DNA of 47,451 bases from Candidatus Micrarchaeota archaeon (lineage in GTDB: Archaea > Micrarchaeota > Micrarchaeia > Norongarragalinales > SBBD01), in NCBI GenBank assembly GCA_038046605.1, contig JBBSVW010000089.1, forward strand, positions 1-47,451, given 5' to 3'. A model generated the notes under the pieces. The model was given only the letters and a program-made list of their open reading frames with translations, was not told the DNA's origin and ran no database searches. A program made the translations under genes and the position numbers. Below are positions 1,105 through 24,052 of this stretch, piece after piece (the stretch's first letter is position 1; each line of letters opens with the position of its first letter).

Positions 1105-2826
1105 ATGCCCGAAAGATACCTCATAACAGCCGCCTTGCCGTATGTGAACAATGTGCCCCATATAGGAAATATCGTAGGGAGCCACCTTCCGGCGGATATT
1201 TTTGCAAGATACTGCCGGCTAAAGGGCAGGGAAACCCTATTCATAGGCGGAACCGACGAGCACGGCTCCCCATCCGAAATAGCGGCGCAAAAGGCGGGCA
1301 TGCCCGTCCAGAAGCTTTGCGACACTTTTTATGAAATCCACAGCAAAATTTACAAGTGGTTTGGCATCTCATATGATAATTTTTCCCGCACTAGCAGGCC
1401 CATTCATCACGAGATGACCAAATCCTTCTTCCTTGAATTGCATAAAAACGGCTTCATTTCCGAGCAGGCAATGAAGATGCCTTACTGTGAGCGGGATATG
1501 CGCTTCCTTGCGGATAGGTATGTTGAGGGCATTTGCCCAAAGTGCGCAAATAAGGCCGCGCGCGGGGACCAATGCGAGCAGTGCGGTTCAATGCTCACCC
1601 CTTCGGAACTTTTGAACCCCTACTGCGTGCTTTGCAAATCAAAGCCGGTCACCCGGGAAACAACGCACCTTTTTTTGAATCTGGATAAATTGCAGCCCAA
1701 ATTGGAGGAGTGGCTGAATGCAAACAATCACTGGAAGCCGCAGGTCAGGAATCTTGCCCTTGGATGGATCAAGGAAGGCCTAAGGAGGAGGGCAATAACG
1801 CGCGACCTGAAATGGGGCGTTAAGGTCCCAATCGAGGGCTACTCCGAAAAGGTATTGTATGTTTGGTTTGATGCGCCAATTGGCTATATCTCCTCTACAA
1901 AGGAATGGATTGCAAAAAAAGGCGATCCCGAAAAGAAGGATTATGAGCTAAAAAAATGGTGGGTCGATAAAAAAACCAAGCTTTACCATTTCATAGGGAA
2001 GGACAACATCCCATTCCACACTATATTTTTCCCGGCGATGCTTATTGGCGAAGGGCATTACATCCTTCCCTATCAGGTCGCCGGCTACCAATTCCTCAAC
2101 TATGAGGGTGGTAAAATCTCCAAAAGCAAGAAGCATGGCATTTTCTGCGAGGCATTCATCGAGGACGCGGCGGATTCCCTGCCTTCGGATGTGTGGCGCT
2201 TTTTCCTGGCGCTCAAGCTGCCGGAGGTGCGTGACACCGAATTCACCTGGAGCGAATTTGAAAGCCGGATCAATACCGAGCTCATGGGCAATTTGTCCAA
2301 TTTTGTAAACCGTGTCACAAATTTCATCGAAAATAAGAGGAATTCGCAGATAAAGCGCCCCGGAAAATTGACCGCGCAGGACGAGGAGCTCATGAAGGAA
2401 ATAAAAAATTACGTTGACAAGGTGGATGGGCTCTACGATAATGTGGAAATCGTTTCCGCCCTAACCACAATTCTTGAGCTATCCGCAAAAGGCAACCAGT
2501 ATTTCCAGGCAAACGAGCCCTGGAAGCGCCAGGAGCGGCAGGAGGCCGTGCTTTGGGTTTGCGCAAACATCTGCAAGGCGCTTGGCGTGATGCTCTTCCC
2601 GATAATTCCGCAAGCCTCGATAAAAATAAGGCACATTTTGAATATCAAGGAGGATTTTGATTGGGATGATGCCGGTAAGCCCCTTCCAAATGCCCACAAA
2701 TTAGGCAAAAGCGAAATCCTTTTCTACCGGATCGAACCGATAAAGATGAAGGAGCTTAAGGAAACCACCACCAAATTAGGGAAGGTGGAGGAAAAGATCG
2801 GAAAGCACAAGGTGCATGCGGACTAG
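1105..2826 (+). CDS. metG: Methionine--tRNA ligase (no C-terminal Trbp111 domain)
   Basis: ITAALPYVNNVPHIGN (HIGH motif), GTDEHG, Zn knuckle CPKC..GDQCEQC, YVWFDAPIGY, GKDNIPFH, KISKS. Start moved to ATG 1105. Confidence 0.97.
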   Translation: MPERYLITAALPYVNNVPHIGNIVGSHLPADIFARYCRLKGRETLFIGGTDEHGSPSEIAAQKAGMPVQKLCDTFYEIHSKIYKWFGISYDNFSRTSRPIHHEMTKSFFLELHKNGFISEQAMKMPYCERDMRFLADRYVEGICPKCANKAARGDQCEQCGSMLTPSELLNPYCVLCKSKPVTRETTHLFLNLDKLQPKLEEWLNANNHWKPQVRNLALGWIKEGLRRRAITRDLKWGVKVPIEGYSEKVLYVWFDAPIGYISSTKEWIAKKGDPEKKDYELKKWWVDKKTKLYHFIGKDNIPFHTIFFPAMLIGEGHYILPYQVAGYQFLNYEGGKISKSKKHGIFCEAFIEDAADSLPSDVWRFFLALKLPEVRDTEFTWSEFESRINTELMGNLSNFVNRVTNFIENKRNSQIKRPGKLTAQDEELMKEIKNYVDKVDGLYDNVEIVSALTTILELSAKGNQYFQANEPWKRQERQEAVLWVCANICKALGVMLFPIIPQASIKIRHILNIKEDFDWDDAGKPLPNAHKLGKSEILFYRIEPIKMKELKETTTKLGKVEEKIGKHKVHAD

Positions 2827-2834
2827 TGGTTATT

Positions 2835-3227
2835 ATGCTTAGCAGGAAACGAATAATTGAAATTAAACGGGATTTTAAGATAGTGACGCCTTCTCGAGAG
2901 GAAACAAGAAGCTTCATCGACCATTTTTACCAGGCCCATTTAAAATTCACTTCCGATCCGTCCTACGGGGCGATTTTCAAACCGCCAAAGGGCTTGCCAT
3001 TGCACGTGCAAATATACCCATATAAAACCCGCCAATCCACTGGAAGGATGAGCAATTTTGAAGCATCGCTGCATGCAATGTTCGAGGGATCTGGCGTCCC
3101 AACATTTCGGGGTTCCCATGCTAGGGGATTTGGGGTTAGGATCAGCCATATCCGAAATGATCTGGGCGGCCAAGACCTTTGCATGCGGCTAGTGCTCAAA
3201 GCCAAGGTTCCAAGGGCAAAAAAATAA
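2835..3227 (+). CDS. Hypothetical basic protein (orphan-like)
   Basis: About 130-aa R/K/H-rich ORF directly after the metG stop; no recognised motif. Confidence 0.6.
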   Translation: MLSRKRIIEIKRDFKIVTPSREETRSFIDHFYQAHLKFTSDPSYGAIFKPPKGLPLHVQIYPYKTRQSTGRMSNFEASLHAMFEGSGVPTFRGSHARGFGVRISHIRNDLGGQDLCMRLVLKAKVPRAKK

Positions 3228-3305
3228 AATAACCTTTAAATACCACCTCTGATTACACATTCTAAAGTTGGTTATTTTCAAAAATTGGATGCAACGTGAT
3301 GCCCT

Positions 3306-4622
3306 ATGGCCGAGAAGGCGGATGACAAGAAGGCTGATTTGAAAAAGGGTGCTGATTCCCAAAAAAGCCCGCGCGTTGTATCGATAGATGATAAAAAATC
3401 GAGGCAAAAGGATGTGATTTCAAAGCTTGCTTCCGAGCAGCCAAATTCCATTTCTCCCGAAAAATCCCCCCTTAATGCGCCCGGAGCGGCAAAGGTCCAA
3501 TTCAATATCAGCTTCGAGCTGGACAAGGCTGCCAGGGCAAAAATCCCATTCATGATTGCATCAATTGTTTTCCTGGCGGTTTCTTTCATCATGCTGGAAA
3601 AAGTGGGCTTTTCATTCGCGGACATCTTCGATTTTGCGCGGATATCCAATAATTTTGATAAGCTCTTTAGCATCTCGTTCATCCTCTTTTTCATCCTCTA
3701 TTGCCTATCCCTTGCGCTTGGCGCGTTCTTTGGCTTTAATGTGCGCTCTTCAAATGCGTTCATCTTTTCGATGCTTGTTGTGATACCCATCTTCATAGGC
3801 TTTTTGCTGGATCCGGGGCATAGGTATTTCCTTGCATACATTTGGCTTGCATTCGGCGTCATCTTGAGCGTTCTTTTCGCAACCCTTTACGATAACCTTA
3901 ATTTCAGCTCAATATACAAGGGCATGGGAAGCGCCCTTTTCATCCTCGTACTGGTTGCGGTCCTATTTTCGGCGGTGAAGGTCAATTCGGAGAAGGATTT
4001 CTATTTTTCAATGTTCATTAGCAATGTTGCAAAGCTTACCCCCCAGCTTCAGGGCCAGGTGCAAGGTTCGCTTGGTGATGTAATTGAGAACATAAAGCTC
4101 TCGGATGCACAGATTACCGATCTTGCAGCTGACGATTCAACCACCTATATGACCGATGAATCGATCAAATCCCTCGTTTCATTGCAATATGGCGCATTCC
4201 GGGAGGCCGTTGCCGGCTCATTCAAAAAGCCCGACGATCAAAAATACGTCCGCGACAACACCGCCAAAACCTATGCGCTTCTTGACGCCGCTTCCCAAAA
4301 CAAGCTTTTTGAGGAAACCAAAACAGCATTGAAAAACCCATCCACTTCCAAGGTTTCCGGTGGCGCCATGCTCGCGGTTTGGCCAAAGATGAGGAAGGCG
4401 CTTGCCGACCATGTGCGGAATGCGGAGGCGAAAACCGAGCTGGAGGAGGGCGACCTGGCTGCAATAAAATCCAACCTGGATAGGATACCGTTTGTGAAGC
4501 AGTTCAAGGACTATTTTGAGTTCTTCATTGCGCTGCTGCTATTTTCCATGCTATCCGCTGCGGTTTGGGTCATGCGCTTGCTTTCAAGTGCATTTTGCTT
4601 TGCGATTACTAAAATAATTTGA
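3306..4622 (+). CDS. Hypothetical multi-pass membrane protein with large extramembrane loop
   Basis: 438 aa: charged N-terminus, about 5 TM segments, a helical soluble region and a C-terminal TM segment. Confidence 0.8.
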   Translation: MAEKADDKKADLKKGADSQKSPRVVSIDDKKSRQKDVISKLASEQPNSISPEKSPLNAPGAAKVQFNISFELDKAARAKIPFMIASIVFLAVSFIMLEKVGFSFADIFDFARISNNFDKLFSISFILFFILYCLSLALGAFFGFNVRSSNAFIFSMLVVIPIFIGFLLDPGHRYFLAYIWLAFGVILSVLFATLYDNLNFSSIYKGMGSALFILVLVAVLFSAVKVNSEKDFYFSMFISNVAKLTPQLQGQVQGSLGDVIENIKLSDAQITDLAADDSTTYMTDESIKSLVSLQYGAFREAVAGSFKKPDDQKYVRDNTAKTYALLDAASQNKLFEETKTALKNPSTSKVSGGAMLAVWPKMRKALADHVRNAEAKTELEEGDLAAIKSNLDRIPFVKQFKDYFEFFIALLLFSMLSAAVWVMRLLSSAFCFAITKII

Positions 4623-4693
4623 AGCAAATAAGCGACTTTTTAAATGCGGATTTCTACTCCTATTAAAATTAATTGCATTCTGGATGATACCAA

Positions 4694-5908
4694 ATGAAAG
4701 CAGTCCTCCTTGCTGGCGGCTATGGAACTCGCATGTTCCCCCTGACCTTACGGACCCCAAAGCCCCTGCTTCCAATTGCGGGAATACCGGTTTTGGAGCA
4801 TTCCATACGCCTATTGGTATCCGCCGGGATTTTGGATATAGTTATTTCAGCAAAGGAAAACCAAAAAAAGCTCGAATCATATTTTGGCTCGGGAAGTGAA
4901 TTTGGCGCAAAAATCACCTACCTTTACGAGCCGGAAGTTCCCGAAGAAGCCAAGATGGGGTCCGTTGGCGCCATGGATTTCATCTTCAGGAATTTAAGCG
5001 TGGATGATGATTTCATTGTGATTGGCGGGGACAATTATGTGTATGGCCTCAACCTTGCAGAATTCCATGCCTCCCATTCAAATAGGCGCGCCCATGCCTC
5101 AATTGCCCTCTTCAACCTTCAAAACCGGGACGATGTGAAACTTTTCGGGGTGGCAAAGCTCGATAAGGCCGGGCGAATAACAAAATTCCAGGAAAAGCCC
5201 ACTCCGGATAGGGCGCTTTCAACCCTGGCATCCACGGCCATTTACGCGCTTGATAGGGCTTTTATTAAAAAACACCTCCCAGAATACGTCAAAAGAAGGC
5301 ATCAGGCAGGGGAAAAGGCCGACAAGATTGGCGATCTTTGGGAGCATTTCGTATCCGACCTTCACATCGCAGGCCATCCCTTTGAGGGAATCTGGGGGGA
5401 TATTGGAAGCTGCGAGGGCTACCTTGAAACTAACAAGAAGGCTTTTGATGTGATGATGAAAAATCCCCCAAGCATTCTTGGAAAAATCTCCCAAAATTCA
5501 AAAATCGCAAAAACCGCCCAGCTGATCCCGCCAATTATTATCGACGACAATTGCATCGTTGAGGAAGGCGCGATAATTGGGCCGTACGTCCATTTGATGC
5601 ACGATTCGCAGGTAGGGAAAAACTGCGCAATTTCCAATTCAGTTGTTTTCGAACGTTGCAAAATCGGGGAAAATTCTAAAATCCAAAATTCCATTATTGA
5701 TGGCGAGGCGGTTATTGGGAAAAATTCACTTATTTCCGATGGCTCGGTTGTTGGCTATAAGGTGGCAATTGGCGGCAAATGCCATGTAATAGGCTCCAAA
5801 ATTTACCCCGGAATACGCATAGATGCGCTCTCTGATATCCGCGGCGATCTCAAAAACGACCTCTCGCCATCCTCCAAGCAGATGATTAGCTCGTGCTACT
5901 GGCTTTGA
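4694..5908 (+). CDS. NDP-sugar synthase (sugar-phosphate nucleotidyltransferase with left-handed beta-helix; mannose-1-P guanylyltransferase-like)
   Basis: AVLLAGGYGTRMFPLT..PKPLLPI, FQEKP, WGDIG, and C-terminal hexapeptide repeats. Confidence 0.93.
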   Translation: MKAVLLAGGYGTRMFPLTLRTPKPLLPIAGIPVLEHSIRLLVSAGILDIVISAKENQKKLESYFGSGSEFGAKITYLYEPEVPEEAKMGSVGAMDFIFRNLSVDDDFIVIGGDNYVYGLNLAEFHASHSNRRAHASIALFNLQNRDDVKLFGVAKLDKAGRITKFQEKPTPDRALSTLASTAIYALDRAFIKKHLPEYVKRRHQAGEKADKIGDLWEHFVSDLHIAGHPFEGIWGDIGSCEGYLETNKKAFDVMMKNPPSILGKISQNSKIAKTAQLIPPIIIDDNCIVEEGAIIGPYVHLMHDSQVGKNCAISNSVVFERCKIGENSKIQNSIIDGEAVIGKNSLISDGSVVGYKVAIGGKCHVIGSKIYPGIRIDALSDIRGDLKNDLSPSSKQMISSCYWL

Positions 5909-15050: not shown

Positions 15051-15569
15051 CTATTTTTTTATTCCCATCTCCCGCCTCATGAGTTTAATTTGCCTCCCGG
15101 CAATATCGAACATTTTTAGTTCCATCCTCCTGCGCTTTTCCTTGGGCTGTGAAAGGATGGATCTTCGCATTTCCATCATTGCTCTCCAGAATTTCCTGGC
15201 CTCCGCAACTTCCTGCTCATCAAATCCCTGGGCGATCCTGATGAAAATTGGGTTGACCGTGCTCATCAGGGAGTTGAGGCCCTCTTCCATATGGCTTTTT
15301 CCCTCCTCCAATGTCTTTTTGCCTTTTGAGGAAACCGCATATGATATTTCGCGCCTTCCCCTGCCTCTTGCCTGAAGCCTTCCTTTTATGAGCCCTTGTT
15401 TTTCCATCTTTTGAAGGAGGGGATATACGCTTCCGGCCGAAGGCGACCAATTGCCATCTGTCAGCCTGGCCGCCGTATTGGTTATTACCTTGCCAGAACT
15501 TGGCCTTCGTTCACACTCCCCTAGTATGAAAAGCTCAAGCATCCCCCTAATTCCGCATTCACCCAGCAT
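15051..15569 (-). CDS. PadR-family transcriptional regulator
   Basis: WSPSAGSVYPLLQKMEKQGLI...Y.VSSKGKK winged-helix signature; first gene of the transporter operon. Confidence 0.9.
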   Translation of the reverse strand: MLGECGIRGMLELFILGECERRPSSGKVITNTAARLTDGNWSPSAGSVYPLLQKMEKQGLIKGRLQARGRGRREISYAVSSKGKKTLEEGKSHMEEGLNSLMSTVNPIFIRIAQGFDEQEVAEARKFWRAMMEMRRSILSQPKEKRRRMELKMFDIAGRQIKLMRREMGIKK

Positions 15570-15578
15570 AAGATCACA

Positions 15579-15615
15579 ATATCGTTACCGATATAGCTTT
15601 GGTCAGATATATAAA
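15579..15615 (-). promoter_or_regulatory. TATA box and palindromic operator upstream of padR
   Basis: Minus-strand TTTATATA (15608-15615) and inverted repeat ATATCG-TTAC-CGATAT (15579-15594) between TATA and ATG. Confidence 0.65.
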
Positions 15616-15621
15616 GGTAAT

Positions 15622-15765
15622 GTTGATTTGGGCTTTGTCTCACGTCTGGAATACCTCTGAAGCTGGAGACGGTTTTTCCCTCTGCAGCACCCGAAGTTGC
15701 CAGTCCAGCCTTCCCCTCGCAGGGTTCGCCCTTCGCTTTCGCTCTTGGGACAAAGCCCAATCAAC
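15622..15765 (-). ncRNA. Candidate structured non-coding RNA or MITE-like element
   Basis: ~20-bp terminal stem (15622-15642 with 15746-15765). On the minus strand the internal hairpins carry GAAA, GCGA and c(UUCG)g loops. Confidence 0.45.
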
Positions 15766-15853
15766 CAAAAGGATTATATCCGATCAACCGGAGCCTTCCG
15801 GAGGCGCTTCAAGATGAGGAATAGAACCTTCAAGCTAAATTCGGCATTTTGGG

Positions 15854-16121
15854 ATGCCCTTCTTAGCCACGATTATCGTTTGGGTGGTGGCAGCAATGCT
15901 TATTCTAAAGCTGACCGGCTACAGTCCGACGGATGTAGAGATTTTATCGGCATTAATTGTTGGGGTCAGCATTGATGCGGGTTGAAGGGCAGCTTGGCAG
16001 CCTTGATGAATTTAGGAGAAACACCACATTCGAATTGCGCAGGATTAACGCCAAGTTGGAGAAGCTTGATAAAATGGAGTATGAATTAAAGCTGATTAGA
16101 AGAGGGTTGTCTGCGTCCTAA
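15854..16121 (+). pseudogene. Frameshifted small membrane/coiled-coil protein gene
   Basis: Frame from 15854 reads MPFLATIIVWVVAAMLILKLTGYSPTDVEILSALIVGVSI (2 TM). An overlapping frame from 15975 reads MRVEGQLGSLDEFRRNTTFELRRINAKLEKLDKMEYELKLI (heptads). This could alternatively be two tiny ORFs. Confidence 0.5.
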
Positions 16122-16349
16122 TTAGCATATTGCATCCCCAGTTGCTTCAATATAGTAACTTCGTTTATAAAACGCCAAATTTTCACTTATTTTAGCGAAC
16201 AAAGCCTAATTTTAGCTTCTTTTGAGCCATAACGCCAATAATTTGCTTCCTCAATAGAATTTCCGATTTCTAGCTGATTGCGACTGGTAAACGCTGTTAC
16301 TGACAGGCAACTTAGCCTTCTATTAGGTTTGAATGTTACTACCAACAAG

Positions 16350-16360
16350 TTTATATATAA
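16350..16360 (+). promoter_or_regulatory. TATA box for the small-membrane-protein operon
   Basis: TTTATATATAA about 30 nt before ATG 16388, preceded by an A-rich BRE-like segment. Confidence 0.65.
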
Positions 16361-16387
16361 GCTATATCATAATAATAGCAGTTGGTT

Positions 16388-16768
16388 ATGGTACACAAAA
16401 TCTCTTACTCACAGTTAAGGCAGATGGGGCCTAGCTTACAGGCTAAAGAGCAGGTGCCGGAAAAGAACTATCAGGTTACTCCGATGTTCCTTCCCGCTGA
16501 TATCAGCTCAAAGAGGGGAACTGGAGTAGTCAAGGTTGTTACCAGGCAGGAGTTCATGAATACCAGCATCACCAACTGGGTGCTTTACAATTCTACAAGG
16601 GCGGCTACATACGTCCTTGCGGTTGCAACACTTGTCCTTTTGAATGTCAATATCGTGCTTGCGGGAGTGGCAGGCCTTGCCGCAGGATATTTCTACGGAA
16701 AATACAAATTTTACACTTTCATGGCAATTGCGCAGCCGCGCCACAGGTGGCTCTTGGAAGGTACCTAA
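16388..16768 (+). CDS. Small two-TM membrane protein, TRx(D/E) paralogue A
   Basis: PMFLP..VVTRQEFMN..hydrophobic hairpin..LAGVAGLAAGYFYGKYKF. Confidence 0.8.
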   Translation: MVHKISYSQLRQMGPSLQAKEQVPEKNYQVTPMFLPADISSKRGTGVVKVVTRQEFMNTSITNWVLYNSTRAATYVLAVATLVLLNVNIVLAGVAGLAAGYFYGKYKFYTFMAIAQPRHRWLLEGT

Positions 16769-16769
16769 G

Positions 16770-16866
16770 GACACCGCTAGGGGGATAATCCCCAACACCA
16801 AGGGGAATGTTTTCCCCTAATGTGTTGCCTTACCCCTTCTGGAGGTCGCCTCTGCCCCCTTAATTT
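16770..16866 (+). repeat. ~97-bp multi-hairpin repeat, copy 2
   Basis: Homologous to the reverse complement of 9951-10048; starts just after the TAA at 16768. Confidence 0.9.
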
Positions 16867-16903
16867 GATTGGAAAATTATTTAGGAAAAAGCAAGAAAAA
16901 AAG

Positions 16904-17293
16904 ATGAAAATTATGCCAGAAACAATAATGCCGGGGCATCAACAGGATGTGATTGGGCTCCATAGGAGCGATGCCGCGGGCAAAAAGGATGGCGTGAATT
17001 TGCCTATGAAGACCTTCTCATATGTTGAGCTCGACCCGAAAGTTCGGGCGAATATGAGGGCGGCAACCCGTTGGGATTATGTCAACGAATACATTGGGTA
17101 CTGGTCGGACAACAAGAGGTTTTGGATCTTTGCAATTTCACTTGTAGCAGGCGGAATAATGATGCTTAGTGTGTTTGCGCCAGTTGGGCTTTTGATGATC
17201 ATGCTTGGCGCCAAATACCGCAACGTTGCCTGGATGGATAAGTTCGTATATGGCCGGTTCGGAAAATTCAGGTCGCTTGTTTTGGTGGACTAG
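16904..17293 (+). CDS. Small two-TM membrane protein, TRx(D/E) paralogue B
   Basis: LPMKT..AATRWDYVNEYIGYW..RFWIFAISLVAGG..APVGLLMIMLGAKY. Start moved to ATG 16904 because the upstream frame runs through the repeat. Confidence 0.8.
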   Translation: MKIMPETIMPGHQQDVIGLHRSDAAGKKDGVNLPMKTFSYVELDPKVRANMRAATRWDYVNEYIGYWSDNKRFWIFAISLVAGGIMMLSVFAPVGLLMIMLGAKYRNVAWMDKFVYGRFGKFRSLVLVD

Positions 17294-17393
17294 AATTGAA
17301 AAAACTATTGGGACAATTGCAGAAAATCAACTCGTCCTTCCTTTATTCTTTAAATCGGAAATATTAGTAAAAAAGAAAAAAAGTGAAAAAAAC

Positions 17394-17621
17394 ATGAGCG
17401 GTGGACCAAAACTTCGCGGAAACAGCCTTATAGTGCAGGGAATGGCACTATTGGAAGAGGTAACCCCAATCAAGCCGGTGAAAGGCCACGAGCCGGACTC
17501 ATATGAAAATGGGATGGGAGGCAGGGCTTCAATGCTTGGGCTTTCCCATAGGCAGGTTTATACCCTTTTGGCAATTGGGCTCATATATGCGTTCTTTTTG
17601 GTAATGACGGGCCAGGCTTAG
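17394..17621 (+). CDS. Small tail-anchored membrane protein (75 aa)
   Basis: ATG 17394 after an A-rich GTGA RBS; soluble N-terminus and a single C-terminal TM (VYTLLAIGLIYAFFLVMT). Confidence 0.7.
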   Translation: MSGGPKLRGNSLIVQGMALLEEVTPIKPVKGHEPDSYENGMGGRASMLGLSHRQVYTLLAIGLIYAFFLVMTGQA

Positions 17622-17650
17622 ATAATTTATATGATAAAAAGGAGAAAAAA

Positions 17651-18181
17651 ATGAGGAAACCAATTCACGTCCGGAATTTGGATGAGATAAAGCAGATCAT
17701 CCATAGCGGCGAGCAGGGGCATGGGCATGGCCATGCACACACCGGCGAACCGTACATGACGCACCAGATAGAGGGGCTTTCGCCATACAATGCGGATAAC
17801 CTTCGGCCCTGGTCAACACAGCATCAGACCCACCTGCCAGAGGAAGAAGGAAAGCGCTTGCTTCCAATGTACATGCCAATGACTGCCAATGACACCCAGG
17901 GGGATGGCAAGGGCGTCAATTCAATGATGGTCAAAACCAGGCTTGAAATAATGAATGACATGTTTGATGAGAATTACAAGAACGGCGCTCCTGGAGCGGT
18001 TTACCGCGCGTATTTCATGGCGTGGCTTTGCTTTGCGATCATGCTTTTTGCGCTTACGATTAACGTTTACCTTGCGGGTTTGTTCGCATACCTTGTGGGT
18101 TACTATTGGAGCGAAAAGGAGCTTGCAAGGACATGGTCGGTTGATTGGTGGAAGAGCAAGGCGCTTATCTCGACAAACTAG
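17651..18181 (+). CDS. Small two-TM membrane protein, TRx(D/E) paralogue C, with His-rich N-terminus
   Basis: GHGHGHAH tract; PMYMP..VKTRLEIMND..YRAYF..INVYLAGLFAYLVGYYW. GGAG RBS. Confidence 0.82.
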   Translation: MRKPIHVRNLDEIKQIIHSGEQGHGHGHAHTGEPYMTHQIEGLSPYNADNLRPWSTQHQTHLPEEEGKRLLPMYMPMTANDTQGDGKGVNSMMVKTRLEIMNDMFDENYKNGAPGAVYRAYFMAWLCFAIMLFALTINVYLAGLFAYLVGYYWSEKELARTWSVDWWKSKALISTN

Positions 18182-18203
18182 AAAAAAGCAAAAAGTGATA
18201 AAA

Positions 18204-18320
18204 ATGACACAAAAAAAGGATCAGAAAAACGTTGAAGCTTTCAATCCCCTGAAAGATTCCGGGGAAAAGGAGCGTGTATTCTACAGCAGGTATTCAAACA
18301 GCGCTGCAAAATTCAGGTGA
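18204..18320 (+). CDS. 38-aa soluble peptide within the operon
   Basis: GTGA RBS then ATG 18204; MTQKKDQKNVEAFNPLKDSGEKERVFYSRYSNSAAKFR fills the gap between paralogues. Confidence 0.5.
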   Translation: MTQKKDQKNVEAFNPLKDSGEKERVFYSRYSNSAAKFR

Positions 18321-18376
18321 ATTGAGAAATTAGGTGAATGTATTAGTTTTGTGGATTGTTGAATTAGGTGATTGAT

Positions 18377-18670
18377 ATGGACGATAACATGCCTCCGGTG
18401 CAAATGACTTCGGTGCTAGCGGATGCCAAAAAGCCGTTCCTGAAGATGAGCACCAGGTGGGATTACCTCTCAAAATTCCTTGACATATGGAAGGAGGCCA
18501 TCAAGTTCCGTGGCTATGCCGTCATTTCAGCGATTGCAGGCCTTTACTTGCTCTTCGTAGTTCCGGTTGCCGGCGTAGTCGCCCTTGGCGCTGCGACATA
18601 TTTCTGGGAGCTCTACAAGTTCCGGCTGCATAGGCTTGAGTCGCAAAGGTCGGTCATGATAGGTCACTGA
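18377..18670 (+). CDS. Small two-TM membrane protein, TRx(D/E) paralogue D
   Basis: AGGTGA RBS; MPPVQM..MSTRWDYLSKFLDIW..FRGYAVISAIAG..PVAGVVALGAATYFWELYKF. Confidence 0.8.
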   Translation: MDDNMPPVQMTSVLADAKKPFLKMSTRWDYLSKFLDIWKEAIKFRGYAVISAIAGLYLLFVVPVAGVVALGAATYFWELYKFRLHRLESQRSVMIGH

Positions 18671-18703
18671 GCTTGAGGAGGTGGGTAGTGCCGCCTCTAT
18701 TTT

Positions 18704-19705
18704 TTACTTTTTTCCTTTTTCTATGCCATTTTTCGCCATTACGGCATCAATGAATTCGGCTTTAACTGGTCTAACTTCTTCTACAGAATCCTGCCAAATT
18801 TTTACATATCCTCCGAAAGTATCCTTATAGGGCCTCGTTTTAAGTGTTGTTGTCCTGCCCCCATGATACATGTAATTTGGCGTGAAATATGTTTTATGCG
18901 GGCGAGTAGTATAGTTTGCATCTTCATCGCCTACTGTTTGGTAATAAATCATATCCGCAGGGTATTGATGCCTAACAATGAACCTAGAAAATGTCCCTTG
19001 ATTTGGGCGAACCCTCACGCCTTTGTTATCATTATATCCGTTATATTTGCCACTTATATTCTGTGATTTTCGACCTTCAATATGATCCTTCATGTCAAGG
19101 AAAAAATTCCTATTTCCATAGGATTTACGTAATGAGGGGTATGTATCATCGCCAACCCGAAGGAAATACGCCCTTCCTTTGTACCTTGTGGGATGATATG
19201 TTCTAATGTACGAAAGCGCGATATTAGTCGCCGCCCCTGGTGATGTTTTCACGTTGCCTTTTGTATCCGCATGAAATAGAGGATGTCGCCTTGATAAAAT
19301 TTCCTTTTTTGGGGGCATTATCATCTCCATTTCCGCAGGTGTAATAATATGCACGAATATGCCATGACTATTGCCAATATTGTTCAGCAAATTGGACAAT
19401 TGTACTGCGTTAGGAGTGTGAGTTTCAGCAATGGGTTTTTCATGAAAATAAGCTGAATTATCTGCAATGACAAAGTGAATATCTGCGTTAAAATCTTCAC
19501 TTGCACTAGCGCTTCCTCTTTCTTTCAAATGGCTGGCTATTTTTTTTAGCTGCCTCCCAAGCAATGGTTCTTTTTGAGTTCTTATTATTTGGTTAAACCC
19601 GGATTCTCCTATCCCCTTTGCCTCTGCTGCATGTACAAACCATTTTGATAGAGTCGGGATTATTTCTGCCCTTACGGAAGGTATATGGATGTAGAACGGA
19701 TCCAT
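18704..19705 (-). CDS. Divergent GT-A-fold (GT2-like) glycosyltransferase candidate
   Basis: Ordered motifs IHIPSVR, IHFVIADNS, GAATNIAL, YFLRVGDDTYP, GDEDANY parallel the GT2 motifs IIPxxR, IIVVDDGS, GxAxARN, FLDxDD and GED. More AT-rich than its neighbours. Confidence 0.55.
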   Translation of the reverse strand: MDPFYIHIPSVRAEIIPTLSKWFVHAAEAKGIGESGFNQIIRTQKEPLLGRQLKKIASHLKERGSASASEDFNADIHFVIADNSAYFHEKPIAETHTPNAVQLSNLLNNIGNSHGIFVHIITPAEMEMIMPPKKEILSRRHPLFHADTKGNVKTSPGAATNIALSYIRTYHPTRYKGRAYFLRVGDDTYPSLRKSYGNRNFFLDMKDHIEGRKSQNISGKYNGYNDNKGVRVRPNQGTFSRFIVRHQYPADMIYYQTVGDEDANYTTRPHKTYFTPNYMYHGGRTTTLKTRPYKDTFGGYVKIWQDSVEEVRPVKAEFIDAVMAKNGIEKGKK

Positions 19706-21917: not shown

Positions 21918-22913
21918 TTAAGCAGCGCACTTTATCCTGCAAACCCAGCAGTAGCCTCCAGGCACGGTTTCAGGTACGCCGATATCGGATGTGCATTTTT
22001 CCGGGTTGAATTTGGATTTCATTATCCTTTGGCATCCTGTATTCGGATTGTATTCCTGGCTATAGGATGCGCAGATTTTCTCCTCATATCCAGTTACGAA
22101 CATTCCATAGCAATACCCCCTATATGTTTCAATTGGCACTTTTGCGCAAAGCGCTGAGTTGTTTGTGGCATTTGCCATATTGGAATAGCATAGCGATTTG
22201 CCTTCGGGCGGCTCTTGGATCCCCTCGCAGATGGATGTGTCATTTCGCAAAGTTGCGATCCTGATGTAGCAGTTGCTCGTCCGGTCGGCGTTTTCAATTT
22301 CATCACATATCGATAGGTAATTCATCCTTATGGCAATATCCTGCCTGCAGCGGTCGCGATCGATTTGGCCTTCCATCCTGGAACAAACCGTGGGCTGGCT
22401 TAGCCTTAGCGCCATTTCAAGGAGGCAGGAGTTTTTCTTTGCGGCCGGGATTATGGCTTCACATTTTGACGCATCCCTGGAAGGATCGGCAAATTTTGCA
22501 AGGCAGGCGTTTTTTGCATTGGTTTCCGGTATCTTATAGCAGATTGCAGCATCCTCCTTTGCAACTGCAACTTCGGTGATGCATTCGAATTTGGGGTAAT
22601 CAAAGGGGATGCCTTCGCAGATGTCGTAAATTTTGCTATACTTGGCGATATAGGCAAAGCACTCCGAAGCAATTTTGGCATTTTGGATTTTATTGCAGCC
22701 ATTGGCGTTCTTCAAATCCTGGGCATCCTGGAGGTAGCATGAATCCCTCATAGCCAAATCGCGCTGGGCGCAAGGCAGATCGTTTTCGTTTATTGGGGCG
22801 ATGGAGGATGTTGGGGTTTGCGACGCCGCTAAAGTTGGCGACGGATTATTTTTGACGCACCCGATGCCCAATAATATGAATGCGAAAAGCAGAAGGGGAA
22901 GAATTTTGGCCAT
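21918..22913 (-). CDS. Secreted/lipoprotein with Cys-rich helical repeats
   Basis: Signal ending LLGIGC; about 9 repeats of CxxI-x5-6-(R/K)xxC(Y/L)xxxA-x7-C. Confidence 0.85.
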   Translation of the reverse strand: MAKILPLLLFAFILLGIGCVKNNPSPTLAASQTPTSSIAPINENDLPCAQRDLAMRDSCYLQDAQDLKNANGCNKIQNAKIASECFAYIAKYSKIYDICEGIPFDYPKFECITEVAVAKEDAAICYKIPETNAKNACLAKFADPSRDASKCEAIIPAAKKNSCLLEMALRLSQPTVCSRMEGQIDRDRCRQDIAIRMNYLSICDEIENADRTSNCYIRIATLRNDTSICEGIQEPPEGKSLCYSNMANATNNSALCAKVPIETYRGYCYGMFVTGYEEKICASYSQEYNPNTGCQRIMKSKFNPEKCTSDIGVPETVPGGYCWVCRIKCAA

Positions 22914-23047
22914 GGAAATCTAAGGAACCTCCCGTTGAATAATCTTTCGCATTGGCAATTGCTGGTTTCGCCCATTTTATTAAGTAAAATTGCCAATCGC
23001 CCACGTATATAATGCGGTTTTCCGTATGGTTTTTGGTGAAATTGTCA

Positions 23048-24052
23048 ATGCGCCTCCTTTGGATTGCCATGATCGGGGTTTTACTTCTCCTAAGCTGCAT
23101 CGCAGTTTCCCCCAAAATCAAGATTTCGGATGCAGTGGCGGCAATTCCTTCCGTAGTTGCCAAACTGCCTAATCTATTCAATGCTCCCGATCCTTGCAGG
23201 ATGCATATGGATGGCTCCGGCGGGAAGGACAATTGCTATCTAAACATATCGATTTCCACCAGGAATCCATCCACATGTTTCAAAATCAGGGATGATGATG
23301 TTAGGGACAATTGCTATTATTTGAATGCACGTGATTCGAAAAACGTAGCAACATGCGAAAGGATCCGTTCAATCGAATTGAAGGGGTATTGCCGCAAGGA
23401 TAGTGCGGTAAATTCCTCCATGGCAAATGGCTGCGACCTATCTGCGCCAACAAAAAGATCAGCATGTTTCCTCAACGAAGCGCTTGCAACAAATAGCTCA
23501 TTCCCATGCAATTTGATTCCCGTGGATGGCAATCGGCAAAAATGCATTGCGGCAGTAGCAGGAAAAACCCTGGACCCATACCTTTGCCAAAGGGCATCAA
23601 ATGAGTTGCAAACGGATTGCATCTTCGATATTGCCAACCGGACCAAAAAGTTGGATTATTGCGATTTGATTGGTGGCAAGGCCAGGGATGATTGCTATTC
23701 TTTGATGGCGGTCAATTTTCATGATCAAGCGCTTTGCGCAAGGATAGCAAATTCCATTTCGAAGGATGAATGCAACTATTTTTTCATTCCCACCTATTCC
23801 CTCCCTACTCGGTGCTTTTATTTCGAGGAACCAACCGTACGGGATTCGTGCTACGCCGATTTTGCGCGCATTAACCGTACGCTTTCCGTTTGCGAAAATG
23901 TCACTACTGCAAATCTGATCGGAAAGGAAACCTGCATCCGTGATGTGGCATTGGCACTTGGCAATAGTACCCTTTGCCAATTCCTGAATATAACCGGCAT
24001 CAGGGATGGCTGCATTGCAAACATCTACATCCTGAACAAGACATCGCCATAA
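23048..24052 (+). CDS. Secreted/lipoprotein with Cys-rich helical repeats (same repeat type, divergently transcribed)
   Basis: GGTGA RBS, signal ending LLLSC, repeats such as CFKIRDDDVRDNCYYLNA, many NxS/T sequons. Confidence 0.85.
   Translation: MRLLWIAMIGVLLLLSCIAVSPKIKISDAVAAIPSVVAKLPNLFNAPDPCRMHMDGSGGKDNCYLNISISTRNPSTCFKIRDDDVRDNCYYLNARDSKNVATCERIRSIELKGYCRKDSAVNSSMANGCDLSAPTKRSACFLNEALATNSSFPCNLIPVDGNRQKCIAAVAGKTLDPYLCQRASNELQTDCIFDIANRTKKLDYCDLIGGKARDDCYSLMAVNFHDQALCARIANSISKDECNYFFIPTYSLPTRCFYFEEPTVRDSCYADFARINRTLSVCENVTTANLIGKETCIRDVALALGNSTLCQFLNITGIRDGCIANIYILNKTSP

Follow-up and report, generated by a model that had tools for sequence, protein, structure and literature searches.

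The mitochondrial proteins Mic10, of the mitochondrial contact site and cristae organizing system (MICOS), and subunits e and g of the ATP synthase are small, glycine-rich hairpin or single-pass proteins whose oligomers bend membranes, and the hydrophobic stretch of a reticulon is about 30 to 35 residues long. Reticulon and REEP proteins (Yop1) have been described as carrying short hydrophobic hairpins followed by an amphipathic helix, as oligomerizing in the membrane, and as facing the cytoplasm (PMC7835363, PMC10162974). In DPANN archaea, according to Castelle et al. (PMC8204110), most lineage-specific families have no function prediction and many are membrane bound or extracellular, so that lineage-specific membrane families without a function are an already known phenomenon there. 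Here we describe one instance of such families, an operon at positions 16,388 to 18,670 of a 47,451-nucleotide stretch of DNA from a Candidatus Micrarchaeota archaeon (GenBank assembly GCA_038046605.1, contig JBBSVW010000089.1; the whole stretch is called the window below), which encodes four diverged hairpin proteins (A, B, D, and F) and one tail-anchored partner (C). Castelle et al., in contrast, describe modules at the level of the phylum. In the portions of text available from PMC8204110 we found no mention of the operon, its paralogy, or its promoter element, and our literature searches on Norongarragalinales and on Micrarchaeota protein families gave no description of the operon, although the supplementary tables of PMC8204110 and PMC12892359 may list the families.

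The reading that we favor, at a probability of roughly one half, is that the locus is one transcription unit with a dedicated promoter, encoding five co-functioning membrane proteins that form a hetero-oligomeric, cytoplasm-facing membrane scaffold or wedge; such a membrane complex would probably be undescribed. This reading builds on the paralogy, co-inheritance, gene order, purifying selection, predicted hairpin fold, promoter conservation, and lack of known relatives reported below, and it extends to a topology, an assembly, and a role that we infer from them. The features of the locus are as follows.

16388-16768, + strand: gene A, 126 aa, A/D-type hairpin protein
16904-17293, + strand: gene B, 129 aa, B/F-type hairpin protein
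17394-17621, + strand: gene C, 75 aa, tail-anchored protein with a single C-terminal hydrophobic segment
17651-18181, + strand: gene D, 176 aa, A/D-type hairpin protein with a long N-terminal extension and the tract GHGHGHAH
18204-18320, + strand: open reading frame (ORF) E, 38 aa, hydrophilic; genus-restricted accessory peptide or young ORF
18377-18670, + strand: gene F, 97 aa, B/F-type hairpin protein
16334-16357, + strand: promoter-proximal element TGTTACTACC-N5-GTTTATATA, an upstream block plus B recognition element (BRE)/TATA
18700-18720, + strand: T-tracts (T6, T6, T5) after F, from direct sequence reading

Conservation and range of the operon

Clustered matches to F were found in 40 of 41 related genomes, and 20 further loci were retrieved for comparison. 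An earlier note on this DNA, made from the sequence alone, had read the locus as six co-oriented small genes in one operon; all six ORFs do lie on the + strand, and A, B, C, D, and F are kept together, in the order A-B-C-D-F, in every order genome that has them (27/27 loci). Sixteen of these loci are complete, 5 contain an extra F, 3 are cut at an edge, and 3 have one member below threshold or mislabelled; L001 and L008, which duplicate the window and L027, were left out of the counts. The A orthogroup is present in 21 loci. Spacing within the operon is tight, with a median intergenic gap of 11 nt and 85 of 110 gaps at or below 30 nt, values that are biased downwards by having been measured from the starts of the longest ORFs.

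We also searched 201 genomes sampled from the phylum. A profile of the four-paralogue family matched 24 of the 25 genomes of the order, with 4 to 5 clustered matches in each, and a profile of C matched the same 24 genomes, with a single copy that always stands between B and D. In the more distant loci phmmer did not detect C, although the gene is present there in the gap between B and D. Among the 176 genomes outside the order, C gave one weak match and the family profile gave single weak matches in three genomes (E 4e-5 to 9e-4). We rejected these three as unrelated, since none shows a TR motif in the sequence shown and none lies in a paralogue cluster; two are Gly/Ala-rich membrane proteins and the third is the N-terminal hairpin of a 256-aa protein beside a HerA/VirB4-like ATPase. 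In that last locus (L039, another order, 2376-5676, - strand), a HerA/VirB4/TraG-like P-loop ATPase occurs with three membrane proteins, and the 256-aa protein directly upstream of the ATPase has the N-terminal hairpin (18 bits) followed by a coiled coil, a similarity to the family that is probably due to chance.

Across 1.84 billion representative proteins, the family profile found 150 at E <= 0.001, each with one matched stretch and a length of 53 to 235 aa, with no fused forms and no outlying branch. By orthogroup these are 35 A, 26 B, 38 D, and 51 F, the last including later extra copies. Seven members carry names among the 13 members listed (8 clusters), and all seven are called 'hypothetical protein' and come from Candidatus Micrarchaeota or Micrarchaeia metagenome-assembled genomes. 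Within the genus, the ratio of nonsynonymous to synonymous substitution rates (dN/dS) was 0.084 for B, 0.155 for C, 0.103 for D, and 0.085 for F; the ratios are rough because dS is high (1.2 to 1.7), and A was excluded, as most loci of the genus end within this gene. B, C, D, and F are thus under purifying selection, and the five-gene operon is specific to one order (Norongarragalinales-like Micrarchaeota), vertically inherited, and strongly constrained. Two genomes, G025 (L011, L012) and G002 (contigs C63, C81), each carry the whole operon and its promoter element on two contigs, which could be a real duplication or a mixture of strains in the bins.

Four diverged paralogues

The earlier note had proposed that four of the proteins are old, strongly diverged paralogues, and this holds up in profile comparisons. 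Pairwise identity among A, B, D, and F is only 17 to 27%, and phmmer cross-matches within the small-ORF set reach 7e-5 for A-D, 3e-4 for A-F, and 7e-7 to 3e-6 for B-F. When orthogroup alignments were compared with hhalign, all pairs gave high probabilities of relationship, the highest being for B-F (99.2%, E 1e-19) and A-D (99.1%, E 1e-18), followed by A-F (98.0%), A-B (96.9%), D-F (94.5%), and B-D (89.6%). For a negative control, the C family, which also contains a membrane segment, was compared with the hairpin family and gave 0.9%. Judged by these comparisons, A, B, D, and F are genuine diverged paralogues of one novel family.

A maximum-likelihood tree was built from 94 of the 106 group members, 12 near-identical rows from L002, L004, L005, and L006 being omitted; a separate alignment of D comprises 21 of the 26 D rows from loci and 36 of the 38 representatives of the D class. 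On the tree, (A,D) is split from (B,F) with a Shimodaira-Hasegawa-like approximate likelihood ratio test (SH-aLRT) support of 96, and A, B, and D each form a single clade (support 86, 94, and 90) beside a main F clade (92). The F orthogroup needs two changes on this tree. One row of L025, labelled F by phmmer, is the sister of the B clade and stands in B's position in the operon, and the other F row of L025 has a long branch outside the main F clade. The simplest history would be that a gene pair of A/D type and B/F type was tandemly duplicated around C before the order radiated.

On the tree, the extra F-like copies of five loci group together within F, which points to a later duplication. 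This fifth, F-derived paralogue occurs in part of the order, between C and D in L013, L014, L015, and L024 and after D in L011, so the set of subunits is not absolutely fixed.

Predicted architecture and topology

Each orthogroup has its own conserved signature around a shared core. A has an N-terminal helix motif S/T-L-x-E-L-K, PMFLP, TRQxF, an Asn at the hairpin turn, AGxxYG, and a C-terminal KKRxLLEGT; B has PPxMR..TRWxYLxEYI, a FAPGALLM turn, AWW, and a C-terminal FGxxRSLVLVD. In D we found the N-terminal helix motif, a His/Gly tract, PMYMPM, GDGxPV, TR, NVYxAAVFAYLxGYxWSE, and AWxxxWxKGK, and in F VxADxKxPxL...TRWxY, WKxxxRxRxY, a Pro at the turn, AxAxAxYF, and a C-terminal SxRxVxxGH. The motifs that the earlier note had quoted from the window (PMFLP, LPMKT, PMYMP, PPVQM; TRQEFM, TRWDYV, TRLEIM, TRWDYL; AAGYFY, LGAKY, LVGYYW, AATYFW) are all present. 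The TRx(D/E) motif that it took to unite the four proteins survives in part: the Arg is almost invariant across the family (at least 90% of 94 rows), but the x(D/E) that comes after it is not conserved. The GHGHGHAH tract noticed in one paralogue belongs to D, and His-rich tracts occur in 14 of 64 D sequences versus 2/56 for A, 1/52 for B, and 1/84 for F.

AlphaFold2 (AF2) models were obtained for F (predicted local distance difference test [pLDDT] score 84.9, helices 27-61 and 63-88) and for D (pLDDT 75.3, helices 114-137 and 139-168), and each modelled protein has one long helical hairpin, to which D adds a short N-terminal helix, a small beta-turn at GDGxPV, and a helix at the TR motif. Helix 1 is predicted to begin at the TR motif as an aromatic amphipathic stretch that runs on into the membrane, and the Gly/Ala-rich helix 2 to leave the membrane into a second amphipathic stretch. 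Each orthogroup also conserves its last 6 to 9 residues (A, KKRxLLEGT; B, RSLVLVD; D, KGKxLxxT; F, SxRxVxxGH), and these are unstructured in the monomer.

About 20 residues per arm are usually needed to span a bilayer. Here the whole uncharged core, both arms and turn together, has a median length of 35 residues in A, 29 in B, 35 in D, and 32.5 in F, which leaves about 13 to 16 residues per arm and no polar loop. The two-transmembrane (TM) architecture proposed in the earlier note therefore stands as far as a hydrophobic helical hairpin is found in each paralogue, but its two "TMs" amount together to only 29 to 35 uncharged residues. The turn is uncharged, 1 to 3 residues long, and marked by Asn in A and D or Pro in B and F, and the flanks of the hairpin are neutral to net positive. 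The uncharged turn, the neutral to positive flanks, the hydrophilic N-terminal extensions (up to about 115 residues in D), and the lack of an apparent signal peptide together predict a cytoplasmic location for both termini, with essentially nothing exposed outside.

The partner protein C has an N-terminal MSLLEDxGxxK helix, whose Glu is invariant (20/20 rows), an FExAM motif, and a C-terminal membrane helix. This single C-terminal hydrophobic segment agrees with the earlier description of C as a tail-anchored 75-aa protein.

A private promoter element

The earlier note had placed one TATA box ahead of the operon, and we locate it at 16350-16357 (TTTATATA). TATA matches are enriched in the window (6 versus 1.43 expected, a count reached in 0/100 shuffles). 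The box forms part of a longer, 24-nt element at 16334-16357 with the consensus TGTTACTAC(C/T)-N5-GT(T/A)TA(T/A)A(T/A)A, which is found upstream of A in all 29 loci whose sequence extends that far (six others end before reaching it). A pattern search of whole genomes found the element in 39 of 41 order genomes, normally exactly once and at the operon, whereas the reversed pattern, used as a control, gave 1 match across the same 41 genomes; the exact 10-mer occurs once in the 1.64-Mb assembly G000. Conservation of the DNA immediately before A also exceeds that of the proteins themselves. No regulon is visible, since the six matches outside the operon (41 genomes) precede unrelated genes. The element may combine a BRE/TATA with a neighbouring operator or activator site, to which a conserved regulator would bind.

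The element ends a median of 31 nt before the first in-frame start codon of A, which implies a very short leader. The outliers in this measurement are L015 (G012, 4099-4449; 350 nt) and L023 (203 nt, with two tandem copies of the element 46 nt apart), and their spacing may reflect an inserted small ORF or a long leader. In the window, the start of A at 16388 is supported by its N-terminal ISYSQLRQM, which aligns with the (S/T)-L-x-E-L-K of the N-termini of A and D orthologues.

Comparison with known families and folds

The earlier note had recognized no family, and our searches agree with it. None of the six proteins scored above cut-off in Pfam or NCBIfam, none matched PHROGs at E <= 0.01, and nothing recurrent was found by Pfam across all 94 family members, a scan in which 25 families are listed at E <= 1 and 6 more were each matched by at most one member. 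The best of these, DUF1634 (PF07843), was rejected as a relative: its top score of 17.6 bits (E 0.0041, to F) lies below the gathering threshold of 27.5, and it matched 3 of 94 members at E <= 1. PADLOC gave one weak match, of B to PDC-M56B (E 0.0077, 14.2 bits), and a mobile, viral, or defence origin is without support. The profile of C had one match among PDB sequences, at E 0.84.

Structural searches gave the same picture. With Foldseek, the F model had no match in the PDB at E <= 0.001, and VIA-align of the D model against 48,161 chains returned generic helical hairpins only (737 at Z >= 5, none at Z >= 8). In the ESM Atlas, scores to bacterial clusters were 0.82 to 0.85, which is the chance range, and the structural rows were again generic hairpins, such as chemoreceptor signalling domains. 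The top VIA-align rows were PspA (4whe, Z 7.9, root mean square deviation 1.9 over 62 residues) and Snf7 (8wb7, Z 7.6); hairpins from rubrerythrin, chemoreceptors, and BAR domains reach equal values, which are too low to be informative for helical folds and come with no sequence match. PspA/Vipp1 and the ESCRT-III protein Snf7 share with the family a long antiparallel helical hairpin, but they are soluble proteins that polymerize on membranes.

The operon proteins resemble membrane shapers such as reticulon and REEP proteins, with which they have in common a short hairpin and amphipathic flanks, a resemblance of design and not of descent. Those proteins are eukaryotic and have two hairpins each, whereas here four one-hairpin subunits occur with a tail-anchored one; membership in the Reticulon or TB2/DP1/HVA22 (REEP) families was rejected because neither is among the Pfam families listed and because there is one hairpin per protein. 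Like Mic10 and subunits e and g, the family has a small size and Gly/Ala-rich helix packing motifs, with a small-xxx-small pattern in helix 2 of the orthogroup consensus, but there is no profile match and GxGxGxG is not seen in the family consensus. The proteolipid c subunit of F/V/A-ATPases (PF00137), which has a conserved carboxylate in the second helix of its hairpin, was rejected as well, being absent among the Pfam families listed and at odds with a hairpin core that is free of charge over a median of 29 to 35 residues.

The copper transporter family (Ctr) needs closer attention. Ctr proteins are defined by three TM helices with MxxxM in TM2 and GxxxG in TM3, and CTR1 has an MxxxM filter and an extracellular Met/His-rich N-terminus. 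The sole PDB sequence match below E 0.01 was a CTR1-BRIL chimera (6m97; E 0.0018, 21.3 bits), over TM2-TM3 of CTR1. In this alignment, the BRIL end TTRNAYIQKYL matches the TR motif and TM2-TM3 matches the hairpin, and other BRIL fusions also match the family profile at 9 to 13 bits. The family does resemble TM2-TM3 of CTR1 in its tight hairpin, in the same in-out-in sense, in an Asn at the turn, and in an AGxGxGYF-like second helix followed by basic residues; unlike CTR1, it has one hairpin per protein and no conserved MxxxM. The Pfam Ctr model (PF04145) found nothing in G000 at E <= 10, and Ctr is absent among the Pfam families listed for the 94 members. Membership in Ctr was rejected on these grounds, the score of the chimera being inflated by BRIL. 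Thus, a family with four ancient paralogous forms, a tail-anchored partner, and a private promoter is new and lies outside the described families.

A predicted membrane complex and its alternatives

In the mechanism that we propose, A, B, C, D, and F would come together at a fixed stoichiometry as a hetero-oligomer with pseudo-symmetry, (A-B)/(D-F) plus C, in the cytoplasmic membrane, with all soluble parts on the cytoplasmic side. The short hairpins, with the amphipathic helices beside them, would organize or bend the membrane as a wedge or scaffold, and a cytoplasmic partner may be tethered to the complex as well, by the acidic helix of C and by the peptide motifs at the N-termini of A and D. 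Its role would then be that of a membrane scaffold, a wedge, or a docking platform, and not that of an enzyme or of a device that faces outward. That the five proteins assemble is suggested by their co-inheritance, fixed order, and tight spacing and by the conserved termini specific to each orthogroup, and formation of a hetero-oligomer, as the earlier note had imagined it, is plausible.

Several points weigh against this scaffold or wedge. Co-operonic paralogues could act separately. A complex prediction with A, B, D (residues 66-176), and F gave scores of 0.00 and 0.01, which count neither for nor against assembly. Membrane shaping is linked to these proteins by their architecture alone, their top structural neighbours, PspA and Snf7, are tied with unrelated helical hairpins, and the flanking genes yield no functional clue. 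A hairpin with arms of 13 to 16 residues might just span a thin diether bilayer, in which case the proteins would be two-pass instead of re-entrant and wedge-like. Finally, one order genome (G019, 89% complete) lacks all five genes; because it equally lacks a match to the usual neighbour pyrG, this absence is uninterpretable and can be read neither way.

One alternative, which we consider unlikely, is that the operon encodes a small hetero-oligomeric ion or solute channel, with the four hairpins around a pore and C as an auxiliary single-pass subunit. Models for such a channel exist in the 2-TM hairpin channels CorA and MCU, the latter with a single-pass partner, and in the TM2-TM3 hairpin of CTR proteins. 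The conserved Asn at the turn of A and D, the Gly/Ala-rich helix 2, the His-rich tracts in the cytoplasmic N-terminus of some D proteins, and the match to the CTR1-BRIL chimera would all fit it. However, the hairpin is without charged and almost without polar residues that could line a pore, the CTR1 score comes in part from BRIL and has no counterpart in the Ctr search of G000, the MxxxM filter motif is not conserved, and the His tract is missing from 50 of 64 D sequences.

It is likewise improbable that the proteins serve a larger known machine encoded elsewhere, such as a respiratory complex, an ATP synthase, or a secretion or pilus system, as accessory or assembly subunits peculiar to the lineage. 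Small hairpin or single-pass supernumerary subunits are common in respiratory complexes, and subunits of complex I, complex IV, and supercomplexes are among the weak fold matches (E > 1 or Z 7 to 8), but these matches are at the level of chance for helical hairpins. The order is reported to have a tricarboxylic acid (TCA) cycle and menaquinone and heme synthesis (PMC12892359). Against this proposal, no catalytic or core subunit is adjacent in 21 loci, and the promoter element of the operon recurs at no second gene, its six matches elsewhere preceding unrelated genes.

The chances are poorer still for a set of co-regulated but independently acting small membrane proteins, for example a set for membrane stress or envelope homeostasis, that form no stable complex. 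A dedicated, strongly conserved operator-like element does suggest regulated expression, and the copy number is not absolutely fixed, with the extra F in 5 of 27 loci. But four orthogroups have been kept under purifying selection and in fixed order since the ancestor of the order, no genome keeps a subset of them, and the conserved termini specific to each orthogroup fit specific partner contacts better than redundancy.

Very improbable, last, is an outward-facing form of what the earlier note had suggested, a ring, pore, or coat through which a reduced, host-dependent archaeon would make host contact or exchange nutrients: the lineage does belong to DPANN and an S-layer-like gene (PF05124) lies divergently beside the operon in 6 of 21 loci, but the predicted cytoplasmic termini, with long hydrophilic N-termini and basic tails flanking a minimal uncharged turn and no apparent signal peptide, leave a predicted outside exposure of nil, the order is described as metabolically rich and possibly free-living, and the family is not found in the other sampled orders of the phylum, which are in part described as highly reduced (PMC12892359).

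Returning to the cytoplasm-facing scaffold or wedge, a bolder version of it would be a new prokaryotic membrane machine, a pseudo-symmetric assembly of five subunits, (A-B)/(D-F) plus C, with monotopic or barely spanning hairpins that shape or partition the cytoplasmic membrane from inside. This archaeal analogue of reticulon- and MICOS-type assemblies, invented in the ancestor of one Micrarchaeota order and under its own invariant operator, is a tentative proposal, with the odds on the other side. If it is true that the complex shapes or organizes the membrane, this would be a rare prokaryotic case of hairpin-wedge membrane architecture; if the proteins are instead a channel or accessories of a known machine, a function would still be assigned to a gene set that is universally kept in the order. 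The operon might also have to do with the difference between this order, metabolically rich and possibly free-living, and its reduced relatives. DPANN archaea abound in lineage-specific membrane proteins that have resisted interpretation, and among them this operon is unusually well defined, by a closed family, four orthogroups and one partner, fixed order, a clear duplication history, strong purifying selection, and a private promoter, which makes it a tractable entry point.

Expression signals, ORF E, and genomic neighbourhood

The earlier note had seen ribosome-binding motifs before most of the genes, and we found partial Shine-Dalgarno motifs (GGAG, GGTGA, GTGA) 6 to 10 nt upstream of C, D, E, and F. 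The T-tracts at 18700-18720 may represent a terminator-like region common to F and the convergent gene that follows. The 135-nt spacer between A and B did not fold significantly better than its shuffles (z -1.74, 9/200 shuffles as stable), and an Rfam scan of 15500-19000 had no matches at E <= 0.1. Within this spacer, at 16776-16820 on the + strand, two G/C-rich stem-loops can be written, GGGGGATAATCCCC and AGGGGAATGTTTTCCCCT. Nine DNA sequencing runs from 3 studies (2 possibly the source sample) are on record for the locus, with no RNA run among them.

ORF E, which the earlier note had counted as a member of the operon, is not conserved: it is detectable in 4 of 7 genus loci, and the gap between D and F is too short for it in the other three. 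Its dN/dS of 0.23 comes from 2 usable pairs only.

Upstream of the operon, the window has a divergent PadR-family gene and then a MacB/FtsX-type ATP-binding cassette (ABC) transporter and a CARDB-domain protein; on the downstream side is a convergent gene for a 333-aa protein in which Pfam finds no domain. Across loci, the flanking genes are housekeeping genes (pyrG, radA, hjc, and dnaG-like), with CTP synthase (pyrG) downstream in 11 of 21 loci, RadA nearby in 8, and Hjc nearby in 4. The loci with the S-layer-like gene are L010, L012, L016, L021, L022, and L023, where it points away from the operon on the upstream side and the intergenic region between the two contains the conserved promoter element. 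A Pfam scan of the L016 copy, the only one covered, gave S_layer_C at E 8e-14.

The convergent gene (18704-19705, - strand) is one of three in the window that encode proteins of 331 to 346 aa without a Pfam match, the others being at 21918-22913 (- strand) and 23012-24052 (+ strand). The PadR gene and gene A are separated by 818 nt, an unusually long gap. In it, at 15854-16121 on the + strand, two overlapping small ORFs, one of 43 aa with a membrane helix and one of 54 aa that is coiled-coil-like, resemble one frameshifted gene, and both parts match a single frame in L035 (41% over 41 aa, E 1.5e-6; 34% over 44 aa, E 1.4e-4).

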